A DNA stretch of 64,000 nucleotides from Desulfobacteraceae bacterium (GTDB lineage: Bacteria > Desulfobacterota > Desulfobacteria > Desulfobacterales > UBA5852), in assembly GCA_014237395.1 (NCBI GenBank), contig JABZFP010000019.1:64756-128755 (forward strand), read 5' to 3'. The notes below the pieces were generated by a model. The model ran no database searches and was not told the origin of the DNA. It saw only the letters and a list, made by a program, of their open reading frames with translations. The translations under genes and the position numbers were made by a program. Shown one piece after another: positions 23,369-39,990 of the stretch (its first letter is position 1; each line of letters begins with the position of its first letter).

Positions 23369-25276
23369 ATGGATATCAATGTTTGCTGCTCCCAAAAAGT
23401 GGTCTCGGCCGAGGCGGCCATTGCACGGATCAAGCGGGGTAGCCGTGTTTTTATTGGTACCGGATGCGGTGAGCCCCAGCATCTGATCCGGGCCATGGTT
23501 AAAAATGAACAGCTGCAGGATATCATGCTTTACCAGATGATGTCTTCCACCTTTGCGGATTACGTGGATGATCCGGCCTTTGTGAATCGATTCAATCTCA
23601 AGCTGTTTTTCATCAGCAAGGCCATGCGAAAAGCGGCTTTTGAGGGAAAAATAGACTACATTCCGGCCTACCTGTCGAAAATTCCACGACTATTTTCCAG
23701 TCATCGCATTGGTTTGGATGTGGCCTTGGTGCAGGTCAGTCCACCGGATCACTTTGGGTATTGCAGCTTAGGGGTATCGGTCGATATCACGCGCTCGGCC
23801 ATGGAACATGCCCAACTGGTCATTGCCCAGGTCAATTCTTCAATGCCCCGAACGTGGGGTGACAGTTTTGTGCATGTGGACGAAATCGATTACTTGGTTC
23901 CGCAAGATGAAGCCCTTGTCGAAACCATGACCTATCTCGAAGACAATCAAATCTCAATGCGAATCGGGCATTTCGTTGCGCAACTGGTGGAGGACGGGGC
24001 GACGTTGCAAATTGGTTTCGGGTATTTGCCCAATGCCATATTGCGCTACCTGGACCAGAAACACGATCTTGGCATTCATACCCAGCTTATCACGGATGGT
24101 TTGTTGCCGTTGTTTGAAAAGGGCGTCATCACCAACAAAAAGAAAACCCTGCTTCCCGGTCGGGTCGTCGCATCCTTGTGTATGGGGACCGAAAGGCTAT
24201 ATCGTTTCGTCGACAATAATCCGGCTTTCTATTTCCGATCATCAGAATTTGTAAACGATCCTACCGTCATCGCCCGTAACGACAATCTTATTTCAATCAG
24301 TAGCGCCCTCGAAGTTGATCTGACGGGGCAGGTTTGCTCGGATTCAATGGGACAGTTGTTTTACAGCGGCATCGGGGACCAGGTAGATTTTCTGCGGGGG
24401 AGTGCCATGTCGAAGGGCGGGTTTTCGATTATTGCCATGCCATCAACCGCGTGTAACGGGAATGTTTCCCGGATCGTTCCTTATCTCAGCGAGGGCGCAG
24501 GGGTGGCGACCACGCGCGCGGATGTGAATTTTGTGGTGACGGAATACGGGATTGCCGAACTGCAGGGAAAGAGCATATTTCAACGCGTGATGGAGTTGAC
24601 GCAGATCGCTCACCCGAAATTTCGGGACCAGCTAATCCAGACCGCAAAAAACCGACATTACATTTTTTCGGATCAACTGCCGCCGGCACAAGAAGATCTC
24701 CTGTTTCTCGAAGGATATAAAACAACATTGGAGCTTAAAAGCGGTAAAACACTGCATTTTAGACCGTTGTTGCCGTCGGATGAATTCGCCTATCGAAATT
24801 TTTTTTACTCGCTCCAAGAGGATACCATTTATTATCGGTTTTTCTATCAGATGAAGTTGTTTTCACACGAGGTTATCCAGAAACAATGGGCCAGCGTCGA
24901 CTATCGCAAAAACATGTCCATGATCGGGCTGGTTCAGAAAGCAGGACATCAGGAAATTGTCGCCATCGGGACGTACGCCCAAGAAGACGATACCAACGCC
25001 GAAGTGGCGTTCGTGGTCCGTGAGGATTTTCAGGGAATGGGAATTGCATCCTATCTTCTTGAAATCCTGGAAGGAATTGCCAGGGAGAATGATTATCGGC
25101 GATTTACGGCCACTGTATTGAAAGACAATCAAGCCATGTTGAATGTTTTTCGTAAACATTACCCAAATGCGCATATGACCATTACCGGCGGGAGCGAAGT
25201 GTCCGTTGTAATGGAATTCGATCCTGATAGGCCCCATGCGACCAACATGTCCACCGAGCCCCCTGCCAGGGAATAA
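23369..25276 (+). CDS. Acetyl-CoA hydrolase/transferase family protein fused to a C-terminal GNAT acetyltransferase domain
   Basis: AAGGAG RBS. The N-terminus (SAEAAIARIKRGSRVFIGTGCGEPQHL) and the middle block (GIGDQVDFLRGS) are typical of acetyl-CoA hydrolase/CoA-transferases. The C-terminal about 170 aa carry the GNAT motif VVREDFQGMGIASYLLE. Confidence 0.85.
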   Translation: MDINVCCSQKVVSAEAAIARIKRGSRVFIGTGCGEPQHLIRAMVKNEQLQDIMLYQMMSSTFADYVDDPAFVNRFNLKLFFISKAMRKAAFEGKIDYIPAYLSKIPRLFSSHRIGLDVALVQVSPPDHFGYCSLGVSVDITRSAMEHAQLVIAQVNSSMPRTWGDSFVHVDEIDYLVPQDEALVETMTYLEDNQISMRIGHFVAQLVEDGATLQIGFGYLPNAILRYLDQKHDLGIHTQLITDGLLPLFEKGVITNKKKTLLPGRVVASLCMGTERLYRFVDNNPAFYFRSSEFVNDPTVIARNDNLISISSALEVDLTGQVCSDSMGQLFYSGIGDQVDFLRGSAMSKGGFSIIAMPSTACNGNVSRIVPYLSEGAGVATTRADVNFVVTEYGIAELQGKSIFQRVMELTQIAHPKFRDQLIQTAKNRHYIFSDQLPPAQEDLLFLEGYKTTLELKSGKTLHFRPLLPSDEFAYRNFFYSLQEDTIYYRFFYQMKLFSHEVIQKQWASVDYRKNMSMIGLVQKAGHQEIVAIGTYAQEDDTNAEVAFVVREDFQGMGIASYLLEILEGIARENDYRRFTATVLKDNQAMLNVFRKHYPNAHMTITGGSEVSVVMEFDPDRPHATNMSTEPPARE

Positions 25277-25644
25277 AGAATGGACCGATTGGTATGAAGC
25301 AGATTGCCCCTGTGTTTTCAGGGATATCCAGCAGAGGGTTTTGAGTTTTTCCTTGATAAAACAGTATTTTTTCTGCTATTTATGAAAAGTTATCATTCAT
25401 CGGGGCGTTTGTGGCGGCATAAAAATCGGGCAACGATGCGCTTGCGACATTACCGTATAAACCCTCAGTGGCGGCATTCACCTAAACGGGCTTGGGGCTG
25501 GGATGACCCATGGGGTGATGGAATTTACGATGATAAGCTTCCATCAGCTTAATATGATTATAAAATATTGCCGATAGACGATCATTTGACATGATGTAAA
25601 GACGGTATGCGCTCGACCTAAATATATTCAGGGAGGTATTTCAA

Positions 25645-26049
25645 TTGTCTTATACGCTTGGCCAGAAACAGCTTGATAGTATTGATGAAATTCTTCAGAC
25701 CGATCTGGTCGACATTGGCGTCCATTGCGTTTTCCTCATCGATATGTCGGGCAATATCATTGCCAGTCTTGATGATGGAGAGAATAAACACGATATTTAT
25801 TCCCTGGCGGCACTGGCAGCCGGTAATTTCGGGGCGGTAAGCGCAATGGCCAAAATCGTGGGGGAAGGTGAGTTTTCCCTGCTGTTTCATAAAGGGAAAA
25901 AAGAGAATATTCATTTCAGCAAGGTTCTCACGGAATTTTTGCTGATCACGCTTTTTGGCAACGATCTTTCATTGGGCTTCCTTCGATTGAAAGTTGCTGA
26001 ATCCGTAGAAAAAATCAAAAAAATATTGGAACCTATCCACACCCCATAA
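25645..26049 (+). CDS. mglB: MglB (Roadblock/LC7 family GTPase-activating protein)
   Basis: TTG start with a GGGAGG RBS. CVFLIDMSGNIIASL...SLAALAAGNFGAVSAMAKIVGEGEF..LLFHKGKKENIHF...LSLGFLRLKV aligns block for block with Myxococcus MglB as I remember it (VVFLVDKNGQLISS...SLASLTAGNVAAMGGLAKLIGENEF..QFHEG...TSLGLVRLRI). Confidence 0.9.
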   Translation: MSYTLGQKQLDSIDEILQTDLVDIGVHCVFLIDMSGNIIASLDDGENKHDIYSLAALAAGNFGAVSAMAKIVGEGEFSLLFHKGKKENIHFSKVLTEFLLITLFGNDLSLGFLRLKVAESVEKIKKILEPIHTP

Positions 26050-26109
26050 TCGCCAGCTGGCCACGGGTGTTTTAATGATCATCGACTGAAGACGATAGGT
26101 GATATTTCA

Positions 26110-26715
26110 ATGGCATTTGTAAATTTGAAAAAGAAGGAAGTCCAAGTAAAAATCGTCTACTATGGACCGGGCCGTGGCGGTAAGACCACCAACCTCGAAT
26201 ATATCTACAACAAGTTCAACGAGCGCATTCAAACTGAGATGGTCACCGTTAAAACGCACGGGGATCGGACGTTGTTTTTTGACTTTCTCCCCATCGATAT
26301 CGGGAAAATCAATGGATATACAGCCAAGATGCAATTGTACACCGTACCTGGACAGGTAAAATACAATGCAACGCGCCGTCTCGTTCTGAGAGGTGCGGAT
26401 GGCATTGTATTTGTGGCGGACTCGATGGCGGTCCGAAGAGAAAAAAATATCCTTTCATTAAAAAATTTACATGAAAATCTTAAGAACTATAAAAAAAGCA
26501 TCTTTGCCATCCCGCTGGTATTTCAATACAACAAAGTCGATCTCACGGAGCAGGGAATTCCCCTGCTACCCTTTGCAACGATGGAGAAGGACCTCAACAG
26601 CCAACTGAAACGTCCGGCCTTTGAGGCCAGTGCCGTGACCGGTACAAACGTGGTTTCGACCCTCAAAAAAATTATCACCATGACCATGGCCTCTATCAAG
26701 GATGAATTAAAATAG
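26110..26715 (+). CDS. mglA: MglA family Ras-like small GTPase
   Basis: KIVYYGPGRGGKTTNLEYIY (P-loop, nt 26164-26187), switch I DRTLFFDFLP, MglA-specific switch II LYTVPGQV, GADGIVFVADS, G4 QYNKVDL. Near-colinear with M. xanthus MglA from memory. Immediately downstream of mglB, as in Myxococcus. Confidence 0.93.
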   Translation: MAFVNLKKKEVQVKIVYYGPGRGGKTTNLEYIYNKFNERIQTEMVTVKTHGDRTLFFDFLPIDIGKINGYTAKMQLYTVPGQVKYNATRRLVLRGADGIVFVADSMAVRREKNILSLKNLHENLKNYKKSIFAIPLVFQYNKVDLTEQGIPLLPFATMEKDLNSQLKRPAFEASAVTGTNVVSTLKKIITMTMASIKDELK

Positions 26716-26718
26716 GAG

Positions 26719-27423
26719 ATGTCTGTGAACAACGACGCCAAAAAAAGCAAAGTTGACAGCGATCTGGAAAACCGACTCGACACGCTTTTTGATGATGACG
26801 ATCAGGCGGAAAAACCCCTTGTTAGTCATGGTCCCTCAGAAGATCCATTGGATGAATTAAAGTCATTGGTGATGTCCATCGAGTGGGAAATTACGGACGA
26901 CGTGATGGCGCGTTTTATCTCTCAGATCGATTTACTCAAAACACGCTTTGAGGAAGATCGAATTTTAGTCATGTTTCTTCAATTGCTGGGCTCTTTGGGA
27001 CTTTACGTAAAAACAAATAAAGGCAAAGCACATCCTATCTCGTTCAAGCTCCTTAACTCCGTCTATAATAGCTTTGAAACTGCCGTGTCACCGGGGAAAA
27101 TTTCACCTTCCGAAAAGAAAAAATTGTTGTATGTCGAGTTGAACAAATACAAAGAGTTAAAAGAGCAAATTGATGCTACCCGTGGTGGCGAAACCGAACC
27201 ACCGCATGGTCCTGCCGCGCCAGTTGGGTTGGCAACCGGCCAGGAAAAAAAGGATCGTGCCTCACGCGAAGCTGCTGCAACGGGCAATCCTTCATCGGCC
27301 AGCGCTATCGTGACCCAGAAACATTTCGATGAGGTCATGGACGCCTTTAAGTCTCTGCTCAGGAAGGAACTCAATAGCATCCGTGAAGACATAGCGCGTC
27401 TGGCAAAAAAAAATAGGACATGA
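26719..27423 (+). CDS. Hypothetical protein (acidic N-terminus, helical core, coiled C-terminus)
   Basis: 234-aa ORF starting 3 nt after mglA. No family recognised. The start could instead be GTG 26725, which has better spacing to the AGGAG at 26714-26718. Confidence 0.7.
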   Translation: MSVNNDAKKSKVDSDLENRLDTLFDDDDQAEKPLVSHGPSEDPLDELKSLVMSIEWEITDDVMARFISQIDLLKTRFEEDRILVMFLQLLGSLGLYVKTNKGKAHPISFKLLNSVYNSFETAVSPGKISPSEKKKLLYVELNKYKELKEQIDATRGGETEPPHGPAAPVGLATGQEKKDRASREAAATGNPSSASAIVTQKHFDEVMDAFKSLLRKELNSIREDIARLAKKNRT

Positions 27424-27524
27424 ATGTTCCGAGCGGTTTAGGGAGAGCCCGTGGTAAGCGGGTGCTTGCGCCATTGGCCGACGATCGCATACGAATTCGG
27501 TAAAAAATTTGGGGGAGGTAAGCG

Positions 27525-27995
27525 ATGGATTTGTCGTCCGGTGATATTTCGGAACTCGTCTTCAAACCCGTTGTACGTGACGATCTGGGTAACTTTTCTC
27601 TTGACGGCCATATGTTAAGCGTTCTCATGGCATTGGATGGGAAAAGCACGATCGGGAAGGTTGCCCAACAATCGGGTCTGAACATGGCGACCATGCGGGA
27701 TGCCACAAAAAAACTGGTTGAATTGAAGCTAATCGAAAGAATTGAAGGTTCCGGAAGTGTCCTGGACCATGATTTTATATCATTTCTGATTTCTGAATTA
27801 TCACTTGCCATCGGTCCTTTAGGCGAGGTGATTGTAGAGGATGGCGTTGAAGACCTCGGTTTCACAAAAGCCAATTTTCCCACGCATCGTGCTGCGGAAC
27901 TGGTCAATTTACTTGCGCAAGAAATTCAGAGAGATGAAAAGCGCACTGAATTTAAGCAGCGCATGGTGAAGAAAATACGAGAGAAAAGATACTGA
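27525..27995 (+). CDS. Hypothetical protein with N-terminal winged-helix-like segment
   Basis: GGAGG RBS. LSVLMALDGKSTIGKVAQQSGLNMATMRDATKKLVELKLIERIEG looks like a wHTH (MarR-like or DUF742/CvnC-like). The C-terminal half is unassigned. Confidence 0.7.
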   Translation: MDLSSGDISELVFKPVVRDDLGNFSLDGHMLSVLMALDGKSTIGKVAQQSGLNMATMRDATKKLVELKLIERIEGSGSVLDHDFISFLISELSLAIGPLGEVIVEDGVEDLGFTKANFPTHRAAELVNLLAQEIQRDEKRTEFKQRMVKKIREKRY

Positions 27996-28134
27996 GTCGA
28001 TCAACGAGGAAACGCAAAGCATTAGGCTGATTTTATCCGTTCGACCATGTTTCTGAGATGAATGGTTTGAGCGTAATTACCGGCTATTGAGATATGCTAG
28101 CAAACTGGCGATATCGCAGACAAGGAGTGCGGCT

Positions 28135-29490
28135 ATGATCGTTATTTGTGAAGAATGTGGCAAAAAATACAAAATCGACCCCGGGAAAATCAAGGGGGAA
28201 CAAGCCCGCTTTAAATGCAAAGCCTGTTCTCACATCATCACCGTGAATAAGGTTGAAAACAGGCGCGAACCGGAACCGACTGTGGAACCCGAGACCATGG
28301 ATTCTGCTGTTGCTGATTCCACCGAGGTGCCGGAAGAAACCATCGATAAATCCGAGCCGCCTTCCCAGGTCGTTGAACCATCAGCCCCTCCTGTGGCCGA
28401 CCGCATTGATCGTCGTAAAAAGAAAGCGGGCATGGGGCTGACCACCAAGGTGATTCTTCTTATGCTGCTTGTTAGTCTGCTGCCGGGAACGATTTATTTT
28501 ATTCTTTCGTTTAAGCAGGCCAATGACCGTATCGTCAGTGATACAACTCAGATGGGCATGCAAACCGCCGGGGTGCTCGCCGATGAAGTCGATGAGTGGC
28601 TTGATAAAAACATCCGTGTCCTTAACACCGTGGCGCAAATGCCGGGTATTCAATCAATGAATCGTTTTGAACAGGAAATTCTTTTGCAAACGGTTCAGAA
28701 AGAATATCCTTGGATGTATCTTGTTTTTACGACGGATATCAATGGGATGAATGTGGCCCGAAATGATGGGAAAGAATTAAAAGATTACTCGGATCGCCAA
28801 TACGTCCAGGATATTACTTCAGGAAAAGACCTCACCTGGCAAAATTTGATTGGTAAAACATCGAAACAACCCGCGTTGGTTATTGCGGTGCCTATCCGGA
28901 AAAACAATCAGACCATCGGGGTGATGGCCGCGGCCATGACACGTGATGCGATCAGCCAGCGAATTGCAAATTGGCGCCAGGGAAAAACAGGATACGCATT
29001 TCTGGTCGATCAATACGGGAAGGTTGTGTCCCATCAATTGAAAGAGTTCGTTGAGGAACAAAAGGATCTAAGCAATCATCCGCTGGTCAAGGCCGCTAAT
29101 GCCAATAAGAATAGCATGATTGAATTTAAAAATGACAATGGGCGTGATGAGATCGGTTTCTCCAAAACAACCCAACTGGGATGGGCGCTTGCGATCCAAC
29201 AGGAAAAAAATGAAGCATTTGCCATTCTCAAAGAATCGCAAATGTTCGCTTTCGCTTTGATGGGCGCAACTTTTATCGTTGTCCTTATCATTGCCTATAT
29301 CGCAAGCCGCGCAATTGTTACACCAATACGCAAATTGACGGATGCGGCCAACCGCATCAGCGTCGGCGAACTCGGTGTTGAAATTGAAAACAAGTCCAAG
29401 GATGAAATCGGCGACCTCGCAGAGGCCATTACGAGAATGCAAGACAGCATAAGGTTGTCCATTGAAAGGCTTAGACGTCGGCGAAGATAG
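28135..29490 (+). CDS. Membrane sensor: MJ0042-type zinc ribbon + TM + Cache-like periplasmic domain + TM + HAMP, no output domain
   Basis: AAGGAG RBS with ATG 28135. Domains in order:
- Zn ribbon MIVICEECGKKYKIDPGKIKGEQARFKCKACSHIITV.
- P/E-rich linker.
- TM1 VILLMLLVSLLPGTIYFIL.
- About 230-aa extracytoplasmic region with a Cache-like pattern (YLVFTTDINGMNVARND...YSDRQYV...IAVPI...GYAFLVDQYGKVVSH).
- TM2 FAFALMGATFIVVLIIAYIA.
- HAMP IVTPIRKLTDAANRISVGELGVEIENKSKDEIGDLAEAITRMQDSI.
The stop follows 12 aa after HAMP. Confidence 0.85.
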   Translation: MIVICEECGKKYKIDPGKIKGEQARFKCKACSHIITVNKVENRREPEPTVEPETMDSAVADSTEVPEETIDKSEPPSQVVEPSAPPVADRIDRRKKKAGMGLTTKVILLMLLVSLLPGTIYFILSFKQANDRIVSDTTQMGMQTAGVLADEVDEWLDKNIRVLNTVAQMPGIQSMNRFEQEILLQTVQKEYPWMYLVFTTDINGMNVARNDGKELKDYSDRQYVQDITSGKDLTWQNLIGKTSKQPALVIAVPIRKNNQTIGVMAAAMTRDAISQRIANWRQGKTGYAFLVDQYGKVVSHQLKEFVEEQKDLSNHPLVKAANANKNSMIEFKNDNGRDEIGFSKTTQLGWALAIQQEKNEAFAILKESQMFAFALMGATFIVVLIIAYIASRAIVTPIRKLTDAANRISVGELGVEIENKSKDEIGDLAEAITRMQDSIRLSIERLRRRRR

Positions 29491-29597
29491 GACCGGCACC
29501 CTTCCGGAATTTTGGGCTTTCGGGCAGCCGTTGGGAAATATGCCGCCAACCTTTTTGATTACCGAAACTGTCATTTTGATGACTAGGAACGATTTGA

Positions 29598-30599
29598 ATG
29601 TTTGTTACACCTAAAGAAAATCCAATCTTTGCAAGTTTAAATAGCTATTATGTCAACATTGAACGGTTGATTGAACATTTTCAAGGTGAAGTTGGTTGCG
29701 GTGCTTTGTCTTTTAAATCTTCATCTTCGGAAGGGATATTATTTTTTGACAAAGATGAAATCCTCAATGGTATTTACTTTCAAAAAAATAATGAGTTAAC
29801 CGGATCTGAAGCGGTAGATCAACTCATTCAATTATCGGAATCCACCAATTTTTCATTGAATGTCTACCTTCTCCGGGCAGAAGATATTTACTTTTGGTCA
29901 ACGATGCCAAATGCTCAGCGCATCTATCAGGATCTTACCACGGAGTTTACCGATCTTGAAGGTTTGATCAAAAAAATGAAATCTGAAGGACTCACGGGGT
30001 TCATTGAAGTCGTCATCGGAGATGCCAATGGGGAAGGCCTGATCTTCTTCAACAATGGTCAAGTATCGGGAGGATCTTATTCTTGGGGTAGTGGTGACAG
30101 TCGGCGAGAAGAGGAAGATCAAGAAAAACTCGTTCAATTGACGAAAGACCATGGGGGCGCATTTCATGTCAGTCGCATCCCGATGGACGAAAAGAATATC
30201 GCCAGTGAAACAGATGACGATCTGAATCCAGAGGAAGTTTTAGAGAAGCCATCAACACGCATTGTTACGGCAATGGAAGAAATGATGGCTATTTTCGAAC
30301 GAACCGTTAGCGCACAAAAAAACATTCCGTCTGATTTTGCGACATTGTTAAATCGAAAATTTGTTGAGAAGGCTGACCGCTATCCCTTTTTGGATCCTTT
30401 TGCCGCTGAATTCAAATATGCCGAGGAAAAAATTAAGTTCGATGGCGATACGACGGATAAAGAACTGACACAGGGCGTTTTAGAGTCCATTAAGGAGCTT
30501 GCTGCTGAACTAGATGCGTTGACGCAATTCAAAAGCAACCTTGTGACCTGGATGAAAAAATATAGCGAAGAAGTTAAATTATTTGACATAAAGCTTTAA
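29598..30599 (+). CDS. Hypothetical protein with two PATAN/DUF4388-like segments
   Basis: Two internally similar segments: GCGALSFKSSSSEGILFFDKDEILNGIY...GSEAVDQL and LTGFIEVVIGDANGEGLIFFNNGQVSGGSY. Both resemble the TG.L.....G.I.F..G.I pattern of DUF4388. The assignment is from memory and tentative. Confidence 0.7.
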   Translation: MFVTPKENPIFASLNSYYVNIERLIEHFQGEVGCGALSFKSSSSEGILFFDKDEILNGIYFQKNNELTGSEAVDQLIQLSESTNFSLNVYLLRAEDIYFWSTMPNAQRIYQDLTTEFTDLEGLIKKMKSEGLTGFIEVVIGDANGEGLIFFNNGQVSGGSYSWGSGDSRREEEDQEKLVQLTKDHGGAFHVSRIPMDEKNIASETDDDLNPEEVLEKPSTRIVTAMEEMMAIFERTVSAQKNIPSDFATLLNRKFVEKADRYPFLDPFAAEFKYAEEKIKFDGDTTDKELTQGVLESIKELAAELDALTQFKSNLVTWMKKYSEEVKLFDIKL

Positions 30600-30795
30600 C
30601 GAATGCTGCTTGATTATGAATGTGGCTTATTGACCCCCCTAACCGTAATGAATTTATGTTGTCTCAATCGAATATCGCACGAACCTGTGCCGATAAATTT
30701 AGTCCGCGTGATGTAAGATTGAAAAGAGAGTCGTGGATAAATAACATTTCAAGACGCGGTTTAGCCGGAAAAGCAACATATGAGGCCTTGCGGTC

Positions 30796-31827
30796 ATGGA
30801 CAGTGCACATTTTTCAAGCATGGATGCTTCTTTACGCAGCTACTCAGAATTTGTAGGAAATTTACCGGTTGCTGTTTATCGCGTCACGGTTGAAGGTAAA
30901 ATCGCTTTTTGCAACGACCCCTTTGCACGAATTTTTGGTTTTGCATCAGTCAAAGATGCTATCGGTTTTCCGGAAATTAAACTTTATCGCAACAAAAAGG
31001 ATCGCGGCACATTAGTCCAAACCGTTTTGCAACATGGCCTTATTAGCGAAATGCCGGTTCCGTTCTATAAAAGGGACCGCACGCCCATATGGTGCTCGAT
31101 GACCACCAAGGCCGTATTTGATGATGACGGTGAAGTGGTATCTCTCGATGGACTTGTCCGAGATATTTCTGGCGAAATCGAAGAAGCCGATCTCAATGGC
31201 GACTTGATTGGTCGTCTCAATAGAATTGAAGACGCTGTTTTTCTGCTAGATCCACAGGGACGAATTATTCAGGCCAACGAAGTTGCTGCGGAAATTACCG
31301 GATGTCATATCGTCGACCTGCCGGGGCGCTTGTTTTCCGAATTGCTGGCTAACGAAGATCGACAGTTATTCTTTCTTTTCATTGGCGATACCAACCGAAT
31401 TGGTCGAGAAGAAATCATACTGAAATTAAAGGCTGATTCTTCGAAAGATAAATTTATTCGCATTCAAGCCGCCGTCATAAAATCTGAGGGGCGATCCCGG
31501 ACAATAAGTTGCGTTATTAGTGATGTGACGGATCGCGTCAACCAGATAAGGGAAAAAGCAAACAGGGATAAATTCCAAGGCGTACTTGAAATGGCAGGCG
31601 GTGTGGCCCATCGCTTTAACCAGCCATTGACCATTGTGACCAACATCATCAGTGAAATGCTATCCGATATCGATCCCGATGATCGACTCTACGCCAGTAT
31701 TTCCAAAGTACAGGATCAAATACACAAATTAAACGATATTGCCCGGAAAGTGGGCAATATCAAAAAATATGAAGCCATTGACTATGTCGCTGGTATAAAA
31801 ATTGTGGATATTGACCGAGCGTCATAG
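30796..31827 (+). CDS. PAS-PAS-DHp(HisKA-like) protein lacking an HATPase_c domain
   Basis: PAS1 is VAVYRVTVEGKIAFCNDPFARIFGF...IWCSMTTKAVFDDDGEVVSLDGLVRDIS. PAS2 is DAVFLLDPQGRIIQANEVAAEITG. The H-box is EMAGGVAHRFNQPLTIV. The protein then ends about 70 aa later (..KKYEAIDYVAGIKIVDIDRAS) with no N/G1/G2 boxes. Confidence 0.8.
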   Translation: MDSAHFSSMDASLRSYSEFVGNLPVAVYRVTVEGKIAFCNDPFARIFGFASVKDAIGFPEIKLYRNKKDRGTLVQTVLQHGLISEMPVPFYKRDRTPIWCSMTTKAVFDDDGEVVSLDGLVRDISGEIEEADLNGDLIGRLNRIEDAVFLLDPQGRIIQANEVAAEITGCHIVDLPGRLFSELLANEDRQLFFLFIGDTNRIGREEIILKLKADSSKDKFIRIQAAVIKSEGRSRTISCVISDVTDRVNQIREKANRDKFQGVLEMAGGVAHRFNQPLTIVTNIISEMLSDIDPDDRLYASISKVQDQIHKLNDIARKVGNIKKYEAIDYVAGIKIVDIDRAS

Positions 31828-31848
31828 GGCGGCTCAGAGGATTTATCA

Positions 31849-32877
31849 ATGATACGCAATGCTCTTTTTGTAGACGATGACCGCGAAATGCTTCAGGCTT
31901 TGAAAGAAGGCCTGGAAAAATATCGAGAGACCTTCAATGTCGTCCTGGCTGAGGATGGATTTGACGCTGTCAATAAACTCAAAAAGAATTCGATTTCTCT
32001 GGTGGTCACCGATCTCAAAATGCCGAACATGGATGGTTTCAGTTTGCTGGCCCATATCATGGAAACATATCCAGAGATCCCCGTCGTGATCATTACCGGC
32101 TATAGCACCTCCGAGATGAAACGGTTGGCCCAGGAAGGGGGCGCGGTTGGATATATAAGCAAGCCGTTCCTGATTGAAGACTTGGCCAAACACATCATGA
32201 AAACGTTGCGCAAAGAGTCGGACGGGGGAACATTGCACGGTGTTTCTTCCGGTATGTTTTTGCAGTTAATGGAAATGGAAGAAAGAACCTGCACGATTCG
32301 ATTGGTGGATAAGGCCAGCAAAAAAGGCGGTGTTCTTTTTTTCAGGGAAGGCGCCTTGTTGGACGCCCGTGTCGGTTCGATACAAGGGATTGAAGCCGCC
32401 TACATAATCTTTTCGTGGGAGGAGGTCACCCTCTCCATCCAGAACGAATGCCCACAGAAAGACAACAAGATCAATAGCGATCTTCAGCCGATTATTTTAG
32501 AAGCCATGCGGCTGAAGGATGAAGCGGATGACAATGAAGACGAAACAATCGAGGGCGACGAAGAAACGATTGAACAAATCACCTTGGATGAAAACCATGC
32601 ATCCCCGATTGAAAGAATCAAGTCGCGCCTGGATATCGAAATTGGAGAACGTTGCGGACTTGAGGATATATACCAAGACAACAGTATGAATGGTTTGGTC
32701 GAAACCCTCTCTGCGTTGGGTAGCGCCTTCAGCTTCGGTGCCATGAGACTTGGTTACATTGATCGAGGGGCGGCAACAGATACGATTTTATTGCCGGGTA
32801 ATCCATCGACCATCATAGCGGTGGACCCGAAATGTCCACGGGATAAAATTATCCAGGTATTGAGCGACACCATTTGA
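31849..32877 (+). CDS. Response regulator: receiver + PATAN/DUF4388 domain + acidic linker + unassigned C-terminal domain
   Basis: The receiver has all key residues: FVDDD, LVVTDLKMPNMDG, VVIITGYS, ISKPF. The DUF4388-like part is GTLHGVSSGMFLQLMEMEERTCTIRLVDKASKKGGVLFFREGALLDARVGSIQGIEAAYIIFSWEEVTL. It is followed by an acidic tract DEADDNEDETIEGDEETIE. Confidence 0.88.
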   Translation: MIRNALFVDDDREMLQALKEGLEKYRETFNVVLAEDGFDAVNKLKKNSISLVVTDLKMPNMDGFSLLAHIMETYPEIPVVIITGYSTSEMKRLAQEGGAVGYISKPFLIEDLAKHIMKTLRKESDGGTLHGVSSGMFLQLMEMEERTCTIRLVDKASKKGGVLFFREGALLDARVGSIQGIEAAYIIFSWEEVTLSIQNECPQKDNKINSDLQPIILEAMRLKDEADDNEDETIEGDEETIEQITLDENHASPIERIKSRLDIEIGERCGLEDIYQDNSMNGLVETLSALGSAFSFGAMRLGYIDRGAATDTILLPGNPSTIIAVDPKCPRDKIIQVLSDTI

Positions 32878-32934
32878 AATTGTTACGATCGTCATGATTG
32901 AATTGAAAAATAGATAGCTTCCGGTGCAAGGTGA

Positions 32935-33294
32935 ATGAAAAATATGAAAGACCTTTTCAATGATGTTATGGATATCAACGGCGTAAAAGGCATTGTATTG
33001 CTTTCAGGAGAAGGTAAAGTCGTTTATGATACGGATGCGAACAACAAGACCAATGCGGGAAAACCATATGCCAACTGGAATAAACTGCTTGTTTCATTAG
33101 GGGATGCGCGGGAGGCCGAATTTTTATTTGAAAAGGGTCGCCTCTATCTTCGAAAAACACATGACGGCTTTATGATCGTACGCATGCAGTTGATTGCATC
33201 CATTGCGATGGTCAAACTAAATTGTGATATTTTATTGCCACAACTTAAAAGTACAGGAAACAGCAAGGGTCTGAAGGGATTTTTTAAGCGCTAA
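32935..33294 (+). CDS. Second Roadblock/LC7-like protein (MglC-like candidate)
   Basis: AAGGTG RBS. 119 aa. INGVKGIVLLSGEGKVVYDT...EAEFLFEKGRLYLRKTHDGFMIVRMQLIASIAMVKL fits the Roadblock alpha-beta-alpha pattern. Much more diverged than the mglB product. Confidence 0.6.
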   Translation: MKNMKDLFNDVMDINGVKGIVLLSGEGKVVYDTDANNKTNAGKPYANWNKLLVSLGDAREAEFLFEKGRLYLRKTHDGFMIVRMQLIASIAMVKLNCDILLPQLKSTGNSKGLKGFFKR

Positions 33295-33432
33295 TCATGT
33301 TATGACGTTGTGTGTCCAGGAAAGTGATTTGGATGCGCGTCAGAACATGGCAATGGACGAGGTTCTAACCCAAATAAAATTATTAAATCCAGGCATTGCG
33401 TAAGCCTGATCCATCTGATTGAGAGTGAACTC

Positions 33433-35814
33433 ATGGCAAAACCGGAACAAACTGTGAAATCAGATCTTGATGCAAAAATAAACGAGGCAGAAGTTTGTCT
33501 TTCGATGGGCCTCTATGATGAAGCATTGTCGATATTTAATCAAGTGATCGATGAATATCCCGATATAGAAGAAGATAAAAAGAAGACCATAACGGAAAAA
33601 ATCGATAGTATCAAAAAAGAATTGGCGGATCAGGAGGTCAGCGAGGCGGGGAGTGTTTCTACTGAAGAAATATCAATGCTTAAAAAGTCACTCTCGGGAC
33701 AGGAAGATGCGCCGGCCATCATCGATAGTGCCTCGGCATTTAAAGATTTAGGGTTATTTGAAGAAGCACTGGCCGAATATGAAAAAATACTGGTATTGGA
33801 TCATCCCCCCGAAAGCGTTGTTCCGGATATTGTCGACTGTCTGCTCAAATTATTTTCTCCCAATGATTTGTTTGATAAAATACACAAAATTGTTGGCGAT
33901 CAACGCTTGGACACCGAAAAACGCGGCGCTTTAAAATTCCATTTCGGGCTAGAAATGGAAAAACGAGATTATCGGGATCTGGCACTTGACTTGTACGAAG
34001 AGGCGGAAAAAGAAACGCCGGATTACCCCGATTTGCAAAAACGCATTGAGACGCTTCGGTCACGACTGTCAAGCGGATCGAAGTATGACTATCTGTTGCG
34101 GCAGAAGCTAGTATCGACGGAACAGCTGCAGAAATCAGCCGCGATGTCGAAACAAACCAGGAAAAGCGTTGAAACCGTTCTCATTGAAAATTTTGGAATC
34201 AACAAAGAGGATATCGGGAAATCGTTTTCACAGTTTTATGGTTGTGCCTTCCGGTCATACGAAGAAGATCTCCAAACGCCATATGAATTGTTAGGCAATC
34301 TTAAAAAAGCCTTTCTTCTGCACGAACAATGGGTTCCCTTGAATTGGGGAAAAGATGGCGTCGTTGTTCTGGTTGCCGATCCCCGCGACCTGAACAAAAC
34401 CGATAACATCAAAGCCTTGATGAAGACCGGTAAAATTAATTTTTGTGTGGCCATTCGAGAAGATATCGAAGCCTATATCAAACGATTCTATGCAACAGAC
34501 CAGTATGGGGATATGTCCCAAGGCAGCGAGGGCCTCGATAATTTCGACGATATCCTTGACGTATCGTTTGAAGAAGAAGAAGATTTAGATGAAGCCATTG
34601 ATGAACTCGATGAAAGTTCCAGTAAGGTCGTAAAGTTAGTGGATCAGTGTCTCATTGCCGCTTATCGAAAAAATGCATCCGATATTCATATCGAACCTTC
34701 ACCGCAGACCAAATCCACCAATATTCGGTTCCGAATGGACGGCGTGTGCCAGGATTACATCAAGGTTCCCAACTCACTCGCTCGCGGCATCATTTCGCGC
34801 ATTAAAATCATGTCAAACCTGGACATTGCGGAACGCCGGTTGCCTCAAGATGGAAAAATCAAGTTCAAACGAAAGGGGATACCGCCCTTTGAACTTCGTG
34901 TGGCAACGTTGCCCACCGCCGGAGGTTTTGAAGACGCCGTGATGCGGATATTGGCTACCGCAGGCGCCATGAAGCTTGAAGATATGGGGTTGAACGACCG
35001 CAACTACAAAGTTTTAACCCAGGCCATCGACAAACCATACGGCTTGATCCTCTGTGTGGGACCCACTGGGTCCGGAAAAACAACAACCCTGCATGCCGCC
35101 CTCGGCCATATCAACAAGCCTGGCATCAAAATATGGACCGCGGAGGATCCGGTTGAAATCACCCAGTTGGGCTTGCGCCAAGTGGAAGCAAAACCCAAAA
35201 TCGGTCTTGATTTTGCACGGATAATGCGCGCTTTTTTGCGTGCTGATCCAGACGTCATCATGATCGGTGAGATGCGTGACGAAGAAACGGCATCCATCGG
35301 CGTGGAGGCATCGCTGACAGGCCACCTTGTATTTTCAACATTGCATACCAATAGTGCACCTGAAACCGTAACGCGTCTGCTGGACATGGGCCTAAACCCG
35401 CTGAACTTTTCAGATGCCTTTTTAGGTGTTCTTGCGCAACGACTTGTCAGGCGACTTTGCTCATGTAAAAAGGAATATCATCCCACGCAGGAGGAGTTTG
35501 ACCAGATTGTCGAAGATTACGGCTCTGAGTATTTTAAACATTCCGGCATCGAATATACCGCTGATTTAAAGATTGCACGTGCTGGCAGTTGCGAAAAATG
35601 TTCCGGAACGGGGTACAAGGGACGTATGGGGATCCACGAACTCATGAATGGCTCCAAAACCATTAAAAAATTGATCAAGCAGGCGGCGCCGACAGATCAA
35701 CTTTTTGCGCAGGCGATCGAGGAGGGGATGTCAACCTTGAAACAAGATGGTATTCACAAAATGTTCAAGGGCGTTACGGACATCGCGGAAGTTAAACGCG
35801 TTTGTATTGTGTAA
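33433..35814 (+). CDS. GspE/PilB-family secretion ATPase with N-terminal TPR-like region and T2SSE_N domain
   Basis: Domains in order:
- aa 1 to about 215: TPR-like helical repeats (GLYDEALSIFNQVIDEYPD, GLFEEALAEYEKILVLD, DLALDLYEEAEKETPDYPD).
- T2SSE_N-like region (LVSTEQLQKSAAMSKQTRKSVETVLIENFGI).
- Acidic linker.
- ATPase core with Walker A GPTGSGKTTT (about nt 35058-35087), Asp box DPDVIMIGEMRD, His box TGHLVFSTLHTN, and a CSC...CEKC tetracysteine. Confidence 0.92.
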   Translation: MAKPEQTVKSDLDAKINEAEVCLSMGLYDEALSIFNQVIDEYPDIEEDKKKTITEKIDSIKKELADQEVSEAGSVSTEEISMLKKSLSGQEDAPAIIDSASAFKDLGLFEEALAEYEKILVLDHPPESVVPDIVDCLLKLFSPNDLFDKIHKIVGDQRLDTEKRGALKFHFGLEMEKRDYRDLALDLYEEAEKETPDYPDLQKRIETLRSRLSSGSKYDYLLRQKLVSTEQLQKSAAMSKQTRKSVETVLIENFGINKEDIGKSFSQFYGCAFRSYEEDLQTPYELLGNLKKAFLLHEQWVPLNWGKDGVVVLVADPRDLNKTDNIKALMKTGKINFCVAIREDIEAYIKRFYATDQYGDMSQGSEGLDNFDDILDVSFEEEEDLDEAIDELDESSSKVVKLVDQCLIAAYRKNASDIHIEPSPQTKSTNIRFRMDGVCQDYIKVPNSLARGIISRIKIMSNLDIAERRLPQDGKIKFKRKGIPPFELRVATLPTAGGFEDAVMRILATAGAMKLEDMGLNDRNYKVLTQAIDKPYGLILCVGPTGSGKTTTLHAALGHINKPGIKIWTAEDPVEITQLGLRQVEAKPKIGLDFARIMRAFLRADPDVIMIGEMRDEETASIGVEASLTGHLVFSTLHTNSAPETVTRLLDMGLNPLNFSDAFLGVLAQRLVRRLCSCKKEYHPTQEEFDQIVEDYGSEYFKHSGIEYTADLKIARAGSCEKCSGTGYKGRMGIHELMNGSKTIKKLIKQAAPTDQLFAQAIEEGMSTLKQDGIHKMFKGVTDIAEVKRVCIV

Positions 35815-35843
35815 TCGATAGGAACGTCATAGCTGCTGAAACG

Positions 35844-35888
35844 GGCGAAGGTATTTTTCATCCTTGAAAAACCTTCGCCATTTTTATT
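35844..35888 (+). terminator. Strong intrinsic terminator closing the mglBA-to-ATPase gene block
   Basis: GGCGAAGG (35844-35851) pairs with CCTTCGCC (35872-35879). An inner TTTTTCA/TGAAAAA pairing extends the stem. Followed by ATTTTTATT. Confidence 0.8.
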
Positions 35889-36005
35889 GAAGCGTATCAC
35901 GGCAACGCGCATCACAATTTTTCCTCTTTGGAAAATACGAAAAGCAGAGATGCGGTCGCAACGGCGATCGCTGAATAAATCCAATCCAGGGCCTAAGCAA
36001 ACACG

Positions 36006-36707
36006 ATGACGCATGTAAATGAGGCGGAAACAGATATCGTATTTGACCAGTGGGAACGTATTCTTCGGAAAGGTGCCGCTTCGTTTGGTTTAATCTTGAC
36101 CGATCAACAGATCAAACATTTTTACGATCATGCCGTCGCCTTGTTGCAATGGTCGAAGAAGATCAACCTTACCGCCATCAAAGATCCACAAAGTGTGGCC
36201 ATCAAACATTTTGTCGATTCATTGGGGCCCGCATCCTTTGCGATCCCCATGCAACGCGTTCTCGATGTCGGCTCGGGCGGCGGGTTTCCCGGTCTGCCCC
36301 TCAAGGTGTGGAATCCATCGCTTGACCTGACCCTGATTGATGCCGTCAGGAAAAAAATAAGCTTTATCCAGCATGTCATTCGCATCCTGAAACTCACGGA
36401 CACACGAGCCATTCATGGACGGATCCAGGATCTGTCGCGCCAGGGCGGTTTCAGGCCATTTGACACAATCCTCTGCCGAGCGTTCAGTGATTTGTCCTTT
36501 ATCGTTACGCATGGGTTGCCCCTGTTGTCAAAAAATGGAAAACTCATTGTGTGGAAAGGCAAGCTGCCGGAAAAAGAAATCGAAGCGGTTCGGTTTCAGT
36601 TTCAAAATGAAAAAAGGGGTCTGGAAATAGAAACTAAACCATACCGATTGCCCATTCTCGATGCTGAGCGAACCATTGTTATCATCACAGCGCATAGGGG
36701 GAAATGA
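36006..36707 (+). CDS. rsmG: 16S rRNA (guanine527-N7)-methyltransferase RsmG
   Basis: LLQWSKKINLTAIKDPQSVAIKHFVDSL and the SAM motif VLDVGSGGGFPGLPLKV are typical of GidB/RsmG. No mnmG is adjacent. Confidence 0.88.
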   Translation: MTHVNEAETDIVFDQWERILRKGAASFGLILTDQQIKHFYDHAVALLQWSKKINLTAIKDPQSVAIKHFVDSLGPASFAIPMQRVLDVGSGGGFPGLPLKVWNPSLDLTLIDAVRKKISFIQHVIRILKLTDTRAIHGRIQDLSRQGGFRPFDTILCRAFSDLSFIVTHGLPLLSKNGKLIVWKGKLPEKEIEAVRFQFQNEKRGLEIETKPYRLPILDAERTIVIITAHRGK

Positions 36708-38871: not shown

Positions 38872-39990
38872 CTATCGAGCATGGTACAAATTGTCTGCAA
38901 AAACGAGCAGTAAACCGCTTAGATTGGGGGACATGACGTTAAATTGAACGCCGATGGCCTGGGCGTCTCCGGCTTCCGTCGCAAGGATCTGTGACCAGAT
39001 AATGGCCCCTCTGATGTTCAGGGTCATGGCGTCGTTTGGCGGGCTCATCATAATTTTGACGGATTTTCCGATAAGCTGCCTCGATTGCGACGGCTGGGCA
39101 TTCCCGTCTAACACGAGACAGGCGCCACCGATGGAGAGATCTCTGGCAAAGCCCGTCAATTTAAGAAGGGGGGTCAATTCATCGACCTCGAATACGTCCA
39201 GGGCGACTCTTACCGGAATCGTATGGCGACGGATTTTGCGGTTGACATGCGGCTTGGGGTTCAGCTTGCGCTGGGATTCGTAAAGGTCCATCACGGCTGG
39301 CCCGATGGACGGAAAACTTTTTCCGATTTCGATAAGATTGTCGCGTGAAATCTTGACCAATTCAACCCGGGTTGCCGTTTCGGTGTAGGATTGAGAGAAT
39401 TGTTCTTTGTCGAAAGGGCAAACGTCTCCAAATATTTCCGCCTCGACACTTTCCAGGAGGTGTTCCTGATGGCTGGATTGACGGACCGACGGGTAGGTCC
39501 GGCGGCGCAGTTGGCCGGAAACAACCATGTACAGATTATTCTCGGGGTCTCCGAATTTCTTGACCATTTTTCCGGGGGGAAGCACAATGCGCTCCAACCG
39601 GGTGATCAAAGCGATAAGCTCGCGAAACGAAAGCCCGGCAAAGAACATGTTGAGGGGGGTCGCCCGGGGATTGTTTTCGATCAGACGATGATAGAATTCT
39701 TTGATGGCTTTGAAGGAGGGTTTGACAATCTGCCATTGGAGCATTTTAGCGACGACCGCTTGCAGTACGAATCCGGATTCGATGAACGAGGCGGCGGTTT
39801 TGTCAAAATATTCCGCAGCGGCCGCAAAGGATTTACGTTTTACCAGCAGATCCGCCAGCGCGCGGTGCAGATGGGGATTCCCCGGGAATATTTTGAGCAT
39901 GCTTTGAAATTCGCCGATTGAGTCGATGGTGATCGATCCATCGATAATCTGGTTGACGATGCTGCTCTGGAGTTTGGCGGGTTCGGTCAA
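38872..39990 (-). CDS. Helical N-domain + cyclic-nucleotide-binding-like domain + PilZ domain protein
   Basis: PilZ motifs RKIRRH (RxxxR) and DLSIGG (DxSxxG). The central beta-roll is CAP-ED-like (KFGDPENNLYMVVSGQL...EIFGDV...TETATRVELVKISRDNL) but has no obvious RS/TA phosphate-binding Arg. The N-terminus is TPR-like. Confidence 0.8.
   Translation of the reverse strand: MTEPAKLQSSIVNQIIDGSITIDSIGEFQSMLKIFPGNPHLHRALADLLVKRKSFAAAAEYFDKTAASFIESGFVLQAVVAKMLQWQIVKPSFKAIKEFYHRLIENNPRATPLNMFFAGLSFRELIALITRLERIVLPPGKMVKKFGDPENNLYMVVSGQLRRRTYPSVRQSSHQEHLLESVEAEIFGDVCPFDKEQFSQSYTETATRVELVKISRDNLIEIGKSFPSIGPAVMDLYESQRKLNPKPHVNRKIRRHTIPVRVALDVFEVDELTPLLKLTGFARDLSIGGACLVLDGNAQPSQSRQLIGKSVKIMMSPPNDAMTLNIRGAIIWSQILATEAGDAQAIGVQFNVMSPNLSGLLLVFADNLYHAR

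Follow-up and report, generated by a model that had tools for sequence, protein, structure and literature searches.

A conserved ten-gene operon of Desulfobacterales encodes MglA and MglB, PATAN proteins and a TPR-fused PilB-like ATPase, and probably serves to control a type IV pilus motor

Analysis of a 64,000-nucleotide (nt) stretch of the Desulfobacteraceae bacterium contig JABZFP010000019.1 (the window, below) revealed ten open reading frames (ORFs) between positions 25645 and 35814, all on the + strand, which we labelled g1 to g10 in order. A first-pass annotation of the window, made from the letters alone, had described them as an operon joining an MglB/MglA switch, PATAN adaptors and kinase-less sensors to a secretion or pilus-type ATPase. 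Profile searches of the window proteins against Pfam and NCBIfam, together with sequence searches against PDB, bore out this composition and nearly all of the domain calls, with MglA/MglB at the core, PATAN proteins as adaptors and an ATPase of the PilB/GspE type as the likely output. We read the operon as a sensory MglA/MglB module controlling the extension motor of a type IV pilus, of the type IVa (T4aP) kind, and give this reading a probability of about 0.6. The features of the locus are listed here with the evidence for each.

25277..25644, + strand: upstream intergenic region, presumed promoter region (sequence)
25645..26049, + strand: g1, MglB-type Roadblock/LC7 protein (Pfam, NCBIfam, PDB)
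26110..26715, + strand: g2, MglA-type small GTPase (PDB, motifs)
26719..27423, + strand: g3, protein without a library match (alignment of orthologues)
27525..27995, + strand: g4, winged-helix-like protein with a C-terminal DUF8082 domain (weak winged-helix matches; PF26309 on orthologues)
28087..29490, + strand: g5, Zn-ribbon/dCache/HAMP membrane sensor (Pfam, PDB)
29598..30599, + strand: g6, tandem PATAN-like protein (DUF4388 in distant members, AlphaFold2 model)
30796..31827, + strand: g7, PAS-PAS-DHp protein (Pfam, H-box)
31849..32877, + strand: g8, receiver-PATAN response regulator (Pfam)
32935..33294, + strand: g9, second Roadblock-like protein (profile against PDB)
33433..35814, + strand: g10, TPR + MshEN + T2SSE ATPase (Pfam, NCBIfam, PDB)
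35843..35890, + strand: intrinsic-terminator-like hairpin, GGCGAAGG ... CCTTCGCC, then ATTTTTATT (sequence, RNA fold)

The genes are co-directional and closely spaced, as had been described. Successive gaps from g1 to g10 measure 60, 3, 101, 91, 107, 196, 21, 57 and 138 nt, the largest lying before g7. A ribosome-binding site, GGGAGG, is located 8 nt upstream of the TTG start of g1. At the other end, the hairpin at 35843-35881 with its T-run folds at -28.6 kcal/mol (z -3.48) and none of 200 shuffled sequences folded equally well, in agreement with the strong terminator previously assigned to the end of the operon; a simple terminator scan did not pick it up.

When one genome per species was scanned, 139 species proved to have relatives of g6; the counts given below use the best 80 loci. 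All of these are metagenome-assembled genomes (MAGs), nearly all labelled Desulfobacterales, Desulfobacteraceae or Deltaproteobacteria; three were binned as Gammaproteobacteria or Bacteroidales. As determined by tblastn, the genes follow the order g1 to g10 in each of the 80 species-level loci, at protein identities of 35-80%. The full set of ten was found in 31 loci, six lack only g7, and the others are cut short by contig ends. The chromosomal surroundings recur as well. Of the 36 loci with at least 3 kb 5′ of g1, 31 have fusA or an acetyl-CoA hydrolase gene on that side, and of the 53 that include g10, 35 have rsmG on the downstream side. Loss of synteny had been named beforehand as the observation that would speak against a single conserved unit, and it was not seen.

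These data bear on the possibility that the ten genes are merely adjacent, forming several independent units with unrelated functions or a recent AT-rich island. Gaps of 100-200 nt, such as the 196 nt before g7, and GC below that of the flanks could be taken in this sense. Against it stand the colinearity in all 80 species in spite of the divergence of the proteins, the recurrent housekeeping flanks and the presence of the same gene set, in rearranged order, in distant modules described below. The GC argument also fails on inspection: GC is below the flanks in 32 of 34 genomes, the mean deficit is only 2.7 points, and no tRNA genes or repeats flanking the block were found. Because the deficit is common to 32 of 34 genomes, it is a trait of the operon and not evidence of recent transfer. 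We therefore regard mere adjacency as extremely improbable. The block is indeed poorer in GC than its flanks, as had been noted, but the deficit is mild and shared by the lineage and is no hint of foreign origin. A genomic island was rejected on the grounds of the conserved chromosomal context, the lack of tRNA genes and flanking repeats and the small lineage-wide deficit. We conclude that the block is a vertically inherited Desulfobacterales operon, present in at least 80 species.

Judged from their sequences, g2 is MglA proper and g1 its MglB-type partner, in line with the first-pass calls for these two genes. The g2 protein matches solved MglA (PDB 3T12) over its full length (E 3.9e-52) and is 46% identical to Thermus thermophilus MglA. 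In 51 orthologues its motifs GPGRGGKT, DRTLFFDF (containing the Arg finger, R53), TVPGQ and NKxD show conservation of at least 90%. The g1 protein scored 27.8 bits with Pfam Robl_LC7 and E 1e-13 with the NCBIfam MglB model, the latter under that model's cut-off, and matched Myxococcus xanthus MglB (PDB 6H5B) at E 1.7e-19. It is thus a Roadblock/LC7 MglB homologue encoded beside mglA, the gene adjoining g2 and ending 60 nt upstream of it, and presumably acts as the GTPase-activating protein (GAP) for g2. MglA and MglB are the most conserved products of the operon (median identity 80% and 78%, respectively, the latter over 51 species), and g3 and g9 are the least conserved and fastest-evolving genes.

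The last gene encodes the TPR-fused GspE/PilB-type ATPase that had been predicted, a member of the hexameric ATPase family. In g10 a TPR region (amino acids (aa) 1-215, nt 33433-34077) is followed by an MshEN-type domain (approximately aa 216-360) and a T2SSE domain (aa 394-789); Pfam detected the TPR, MshEN at 44.8 bits and T2SSE at 380 bits. The translation contains GPTGSGKTT, DPDVIMIGEMRD, TGHLVFSTLHTN and CxC...CxxC, covering Walker A/B, the His box and the tetracysteine. The best PDB match is M. xanthus PilB (3JC8), with aa 215-787 aligned to residues 3-557 at 370 bits, and the domain plan is that of PilB: an MshEN-type N-domain, an N2 domain and a C-terminal ATPase. PilB was also the best-scoring curated family, with 504.7 bits for TIGR02538 (cut-off 675.65) compared with 467.3 bits for GspE (cut-off 630.25). 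Since both scores are below the curated cut-offs, g10 is certified neither as PilB nor as GspE. Orthologues of approximately 790 aa form more than 100 clusters at identities of at least 62%.

The connection with pili came from more distant relatives. Members of the g6 family at 20-35% identity were traced to their contigs, and this located sister modules on five contigs from four metagenomes (L084, L087, L090, L091, L092). Their genes are co-directional and include homologues of six window genes and weaker matches to two more. The order is a g9-like protein (145 aa), a PATAN+DUF8082 protein (g4-like), a receiver (REC)-PATAN protein (g8-like), a g6-like protein, MglB and MglA, then a 430-484-aa protein, whose C-terminal CheW domain was confirmed in L084, and a complete PAS-HisKA-HATPase kinase matching g7. 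In four of the five contigs the kinase is followed by a sigma-54 response regulator, with which it makes up a PilS/PilR-like pair; in L084 an unannotated 461-aa protein is found in that place. All five contigs run on into pilM, pilN, pilO, pilP and the gene for the secretin, pilQ, and L091 additionally has MshEN-T2SSE (PilB-like) and T2SSF (PilC-like) genes a few genes upstream. Profiles of the window families matched genes of L084, L085 and L087 at E 1e-8 to 1e-85, L085 being a compact third version with a HAMP sensor and two Roadblock genes and no ATPase. On the strength of these matches g4, g6, g8 and g9 are assigned to a family of modules found, in other loci, inside type IV pilus clusters.

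A profile of the g10 TPR region was run against the 5,520 ORFs of all loci. Beyond g10 orthologues it matched only free-standing TPR proteins, which are divergently transcribed and lie beside three of the sister modules (E 6e-14, 1e-12 and 1e-10); other TPR proteins gave no match, or 1e-4 at most. It follows that the ATPase of Desulfobacterales has captured the TPR protein of the module.

As the sister modules are located inside type IV pilus clusters, the most fitting reading of the block is a set of regulators for a pilus motor, and the free-standing secretion-motor system proposed in the first-pass annotation is not supported. An ordinary type IV pilus regulator set, which that annotation had named as an outcome that would refute it, is partly borne out: on our reading the set regulates a pilus motor, but it is neither ordinary nor described.

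The same regulatory logic could instead be coupled to an ATPase that drives another machine, MSHA-like, T2SS-like (type II secretion system) or an uncharacterised filament, for example in aggregation or syntrophic contact. The scores of g10 below both the PilB and the GspE cut-offs leave room for this, as do its lineage-specific TPR extension, its travelling without any pilus gene and the fact that M. xanthus PilB (370 bits) is at least as close to it as the PilB-like ATPase of a sister cluster (38.5% identity, 342 bits). We nevertheless consider such a machine unlikely: the best family and structure matches of g10 are to PilB and not to GspE, the homologous module occurs inside T4aP clusters on five contigs, and every published precedent for an MglA-TPR or PATAN output concerns T4aP. 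No T2SS genes were found near g10 in the window or in the orthologous loci inspected.

Three further genes of the operon, g4, g6 and g8, encode candidate adaptors. The receiver-PATAN architecture proposed for g8 was clear, with Response_reg at 92 bits (aa 6-116) and DUF4388 (PF14332) at 46 bits (aa 127-226); the C-terminal region after PATAN is uncharacterised. The receiver pocket (DD, D55, T83 and K105) is conserved in 66 orthologues. The tandem PATAN-like layout of g6 was likewise upheld, with PATAN-like domains at approximately aa 10-101 and 120-193 and a helical conserved C-terminal domain at approximately aa 220-328. The g6 protein itself scored 15 bits with DUF4388, under the cut-off, and DUF4388 gave weak matches in 9 of 17 members of the family; distant members reached 30-38 bits, above the gathering score, in the first or the second half. 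We make the PATAN-like call because these distant members pass the Pfam cut-off, and not on the hhalign comparison of g6 with g8, which at E 0.005 is suggestive only. The AlphaFold2 (AF2) model of g6, with a predicted local distance difference test score (pLDDT) of 76, has two alpha/beta units that resemble each other, with a helical domain after them. A Foldseek search of PDB with this model returned only noise (TM-score approximately 0.1) and no similar solved fold. Searching 1.8 billion representative proteins with a profile gave 706 representatives of the g6 family at 50% clustering; a hypothetical protein from a Desulfobacteraceae MAG has the same sequence as g6 itself. One protein of the representative library (P0318, 591 aa) is a natural fusion of a g8-like REC-PATAN part with a full-length g6-like region, and this fusion is further evidence that g8 and g6 act together.

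Weak matches to HTH_47 and to further winged helix-turn-helix (wHTH) families, seen for 24 of 29 orthologues, agree with the wHTH character suggested for g4. Orthologues of g4 also carry a precomputed C-terminal PF26309 (DUF8082) assignment, and the homologues in the sister modules, matched at E 1e-26 to 1e-29, have PATAN fused at the N-terminus.

Membrane sensor g5 is made up, in order, of a Zn-ribbon (nt 28135-28242), a disordered linker of approximately 65 aa, a first transmembrane (TM) segment, dCache, a second TM segment and HAMP. Pfam assigned Zn_ribbon_4, dCache_1 (periplasmic, 28528-29196) and HAMP (29305-29454), and detected no kinase or methyl-accepting chemotaxis protein output domain and nothing past HAMP. 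The true start is probably the ATG at 28135. The best PDB match of the Zn-ribbon was 7ZOK (E 0.0012), deposited as adventurous gliding motility protein X (AgmX), which we take to be GltJ. Zn-ribbon, linker, both TM segments and HAMP are kept in 59 of 60 species, and the periplasmic domain ranges from approximately 70 to 260 aa, so that g5 is defined by its conserved cytoplasmic parts and not by its sensor domain. In Myxococcus the GltJ Zn-ribbon binds MglB and raises its GAP activity, and the adjacent linker binds MglA-GTP (PMC11135422). By analogy, the GltJ-type Zn-ribbon of g5 is a candidate output for a sensor that had been described as having none; the description holds for the part after HAMP.

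Side observations on g5 were made in several loci. One species-level locus (L082) is without the sensor, given that only 120 nt separate g4 from g6. In another lineage, g6-like proteins are encoded with a g5-like Zn-ribbon/(sCache)/HAMP protein (L086 6116-11092 and L089 4808-9877), beside three phosphonate-binding-type periplasmic proteins and without MglA or MglB; L088 (213-2165) holds only part of this set because the locus begins at a contig end. This arrangement suggests that g5 and g6 are a separable sensor-adaptor pair.

With g4 and g5 described, a conservon-like module has to be weighed, in which transcription or differentiation would be the output, through g4 and the GTPase, and the ATPase would be a mere neighbour or minor target. 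Its Roadblock protein, Ras-like GTPase, wHTH-like protein and HAMP sensor would superficially mirror CvnB, CvnD, CvnC and CvnA of the actinobacterial conservon (PMC4316618), and in four species g10 does not lie beside g9. The details do not agree. DUF742 was not matched in g4 at E<=0.01, nor did it appear among the 25 families listed, of 50, when g4 and 28 orthologues were scanned at E<=1. No HisKA or HATPase is present in g5, and g2, with its 46% identity to T. thermophilus MglA, is not of the group 2, CvnD-like kind. In nearly all loci that reach that far g10 is kept after g9, with overlapping or short junctions, and in the sister modules g4 forms a fusion with PATAN, which is a protein-protein domain. 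A module of this kind is accordingly very unlikely.

The remaining sensory protein, g7, had been described as a PAS protein without a kinase domain. Pfam detected PAS-PAS and a weak HisKA match with approximately 25 residues after the DHp, and no HATPase_c, so the combination of DHp and HATPase that defines a histidine kinase is not present. To this description it can be added that the phospho-acceptor His is retained and that some relatives have a kinase inside the operon. The H-box GGVAHxFNQPLT, including this His, is at least 90% conserved in 52 orthologues. One sub-lineage has lost the gene (L054, L064, L070, L071, L073, L074, L078-L081). The g7 protein matches the full PAS-HisKA-HATPase kinases of the sister modules at E 1e-11 and is related to the PAS-HisKA part of hybrid kinases encoded between g9 and g10 in four loci (L016 14131-17808, L059 8242-11205, L026 13636-16704, L050 13754-16281). 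They combine PAS/GAF, HisKA and HATPase domains with a receiver, and those of L016 and L026 bear a second receiver at the N-terminus. The kinase gene is intact in L016 and L059, where its stop overlaps the start of g10; it appears as two ORFs in L050 and is cut off by the contig end in L026. By its domain content, then, g7 is a kinase derivative that lacks the ATP-binding catalytic (CA) domain. With the g7 His and the g8 Asp invariant or almost so, and the g8 pocket residues kept, the phosphorelay is probably real. No HATPase-bearing relative of the operon kinases that could serve g8 was found in the 64-kb window, and the kinase in this genome must therefore be located outside it.

The second Roadblock protein of the first-pass annotation was recovered as g9 by a profile of 30 orthologues: all ten of its PDB matches are Roadblock/LC7 proteins, the best at E 0.014. 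The window protein alone gave no Pfam Roadblock call. The Roadblock-like assignment is made because of this profile search and not because of the hhalign comparison of the g9 and g1 families, which (E 0.02 over 93 columns) is suggestive only. A conserved basic C-terminal tail, KGxxRFFKK, is present, and the 145-aa homologues in the sister modules match at E 1e-10.

Gene g3, which starts 3 nt past the g2 stop, was correctly described as lacking a recognisable family: the protein had no Pfam, NCBIfam or PDB match, its profile gave nothing credible in PDB, and the single-sequence AF2 model was unusable (pLDDT 40). Alignment of orthologues revealed an acidic N-terminal motif (RLDxLF), a conserved helical core at approximately aa 43-150 carrying an SI(D/E)WEIT motif, then a variable linker and lastly a helix at the C-terminus. 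In the sister modules the gene after mglA encodes the CheW-domain protein, and g3 weakly matched its N-terminal part by blastp (E 7e-4) and by hhalign (E 0.004 over 99 columns). On this evidence g3 may correspond to the N-terminal part of that protein.

Taken together, the data suggest that the block most likely belongs, as an undescribed variant, to the machinery that sets the time and place of type IV pilus assembly. Three published contacts guide a possible mechanism. MglA-GTP of Myxococcus binds TPR12-14 of SgmX, which probably acts upstream of PilB; in the words of the authors, MglA via SgmX activates PilB "directly or indirectly" (PMC7668184). The PATAN domain of PixE binds PilB1, and PatA-type regulators bind PilB1 and PilC (bioRxiv 10.1101/2021.06.11.447907). 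The third is the contact of GltJ with MglB and MglA described above. Because of these contacts (SgmX-MglA, PATAN-PilB1/PilC and GltJ-MglB/MglA) we infer the following chain of events, all of it by analogy. MglA-GTP would dock on the TPR region of g10, in parallel with its binding to TPR12-14 of SgmX, and recruit or activate the motor, and MglB would turn MglA off and so end the signal. A periplasmic ligand of g5 would act through HAMP on the exposure of the cytoplasmic Zn-ribbon and linker, tuning MglB or MglA at the membrane. The phosphorelay would end on the receiver of g8 and so fix its state; g7 would take part as a DHp phosphotransferase or phosphatase. Contact with the motor or the platform might be made by the g8 PATAN domain together with g6 and g4, in the manner of cyanobacterial PATAN domains. 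Finally, g9 with its basic tail could be an MglC-like second Roadblock protein and, as a partner of MglB, tether or sequester the switch at the membrane or pole.

Several points weigh against control of a T4aP extension motor. The score of g10 is below the PilB cut-off, and it is therefore possibly a paralogue serving another type IV filament system. In those orthologous Desulfobacterales loci that were inspected, the 10 kb on either side held no pilin, PilC, PilT, PilMNOPQ or secretin genes. For the remainder of the window, the 25 commonest of 59 Pfam families include neither a pilin nor a platform or secretin family, which agrees with what had been reported for the window. In L038, L054, L064 and L077 g10 is not directly after g9: g1 to g9 are kept and unrelated genes take the place of g10. 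The classic c-di-GMP-binding residues of the g10 MshEN domain look degenerate on reading the sequence: the canonical RLG...G residues of the motif appear to be missing, and c-di-GMP control is therefore doubtful. The matches of g9 (E 0.014) and g3 (E 0.004) are weak, the sister modules are known from metagenome contigs, the REC-PATAN order of g8 is the reverse of that in the studied cyanobacterial PatA-type regulators, and the protein-protein contacts of the mechanism are borrowed from other systems.

A stronger form of the T4aP reading can be put forward tentatively, and we hold it to be possible rather than probable. The TPR-PilB fusion would be a Rosetta stone, implying that the MglA-GTP effector of the TPR type acts directly on the pilus extension ATPase. 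With the Zn-ribbon sensor, the PATAN adaptors and a CA-less DHp phosphotransferase added, the operon would be a self-contained polarity system gated by ligand and phosphorelay, a distinct and widespread small-GTPase architecture found in most Desulfobacterales and, unfused, inside the T4aP clusters of another lineage. In either form, the fusion and the free-standing TPR protein beside the same module in pil clusters predict a direct contact between TPR and ATPase. The operon thus offers a simpler two-protein system for the question of how MglA reaches PilB, which was left by Myxococcus, and makes this link directly testable. It also supplies candidate parts for bacterial Ras-like signalling: the DUF8082/wHTH protein, the tandem-PATAN family (approximately 700 representative clusters), the Zn-ribbon/HAMP sensor with its variable periplasmic domain and the CA-less DHp protein. 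In ecological terms the operon points to regulated pilus-based behaviour, such as surface motility, aggregation or partner contact, in hosts that are abundant, mostly uncultured marine sulfate reducers.

The sequences around and between the genes were also analysed. No sigma-54 motif was found 5′ of g1 in the window, nor in the orthologous upstream regions of 47 of 48 genomes, and a sigma-70 scan gave no more sites than shuffled sequence. Rfam searches of 25000-36300 gave no family match at E<=1. The GC content of the block is 41-48%, compared with 49-53% in adjacent DNA and approximately 53-65% farther away; at third codon positions it is 0.39-0.56 in operon genes versus approximately 0.6-0.8 in most genes around. 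Weak codon bias and low expression are possible causes. Two small ORFs, one of 82 aa in the upstream region (25304-25552, +, without a Pfam match) and one of 78 aa in the g6-g7 gap (30620-30856, +), are probably not genes. Three kb downstream of the operon, on the - strand (38872-39990), a protein with TPR, cyclic nucleotide (cNMP)-binding and PilZ domains is encoded, and the gene is kept at the same position in many close relatives. PilZ proteins are c-di-GMP binders and some regulate PilB; this protein could be functionally tied to the operon.

Finally, the operon was compared with known systems. As in the actinobacterial conservon (CvnA-D), a single operon combines a HAMP membrane sensor and a small wHTH-like protein with a Roadblock protein and a Ras-like GTPase; unlike the conservon, it also has PATAN proteins, a response regulator and an ATPase. 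Membership of the conservon, an analogy drawn in the first-pass annotation, was rejected, as g5 has no histidine kinase, g4 no DUF742 match at E<=0.01, and g2 is MglA proper. Both GltJ and g5 are membrane proteins in which an N-terminal cytoplasmic Zn-ribbon precedes a long flexible linker. Only the Zn-ribbon, of approximately 36 residues, is similar in sequence; g5 is without a GYF domain and has a periplasmic dCache and HAMP in place of parts of the Glt machinery.

Cyanobacterial PatA-type regulators such as PixG and PixE combine PATAN with a receiver, as does g8. Because the domain order is reversed, g8 is not a strict PatA-type regulator; it also has an extra C-terminal region, is partnered with MglA/MglB instead of a Che-like system, and is accompanied by additional PATAN proteins without a receiver (g6, and g4 in the sister modules). 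The occurrence of mglB/mglA beside PATAN-domain genes has been noticed before as an occasional context (Makarova et al. 2006; Wuichet and Sogaard-Andersen 2014; PMC4316618). In the parts of these surveys available to us, the ten-gene architecture, the TPR-PilB fusion, the DUF8082 protein, the tandem-PATAN family, the Zn-ribbon sensor and the embedding in pil clusters are not described. A wider search of the literature (DUF8082; MglA with PATAN and PilB; MglA in Desulfobacterota) likewise gave no description of the operon, of DUF8082 or of a TPR-PilB fusion, so that the earlier suggestion of an undescribed system stands within the literature searched.

The closest resemblance is to the polarity module of Myxococcus (MglA, MglB, MglC, RomR/RomX, SgmX, FrzS and PilB). 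In both, MglA is encoded with an adjacent MglB gene, a second Roadblock-like protein occurs (MglC there, the candidate g9 here, with its weak match at E 0.014), a response regulator feeds or would feed the switch and a TPR element is tied to a PilB-type ATPase, TPR12-14 of SgmX in Myxococcus. In the Desulfobacterales operon, unlike in Myxococcus, the TPR is fused to the ATPase itself, the response regulator g8 is REC-PATAN with no RomR-like output, and the input consists of a Zn-ribbon/Cache/HAMP sensor and a PAS-DHp protein. RomX, FrzS and Frz genes are not seen in the block, where no comparison aimed at RomX or SgmX was made. All components are brought together in one operon, which lies apart from pil genes. 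Overall, the operon is undescribed in the searched literature and is best classed with the MglA/MglB pilus-polarity kind rather than as a categorically new secretion system.

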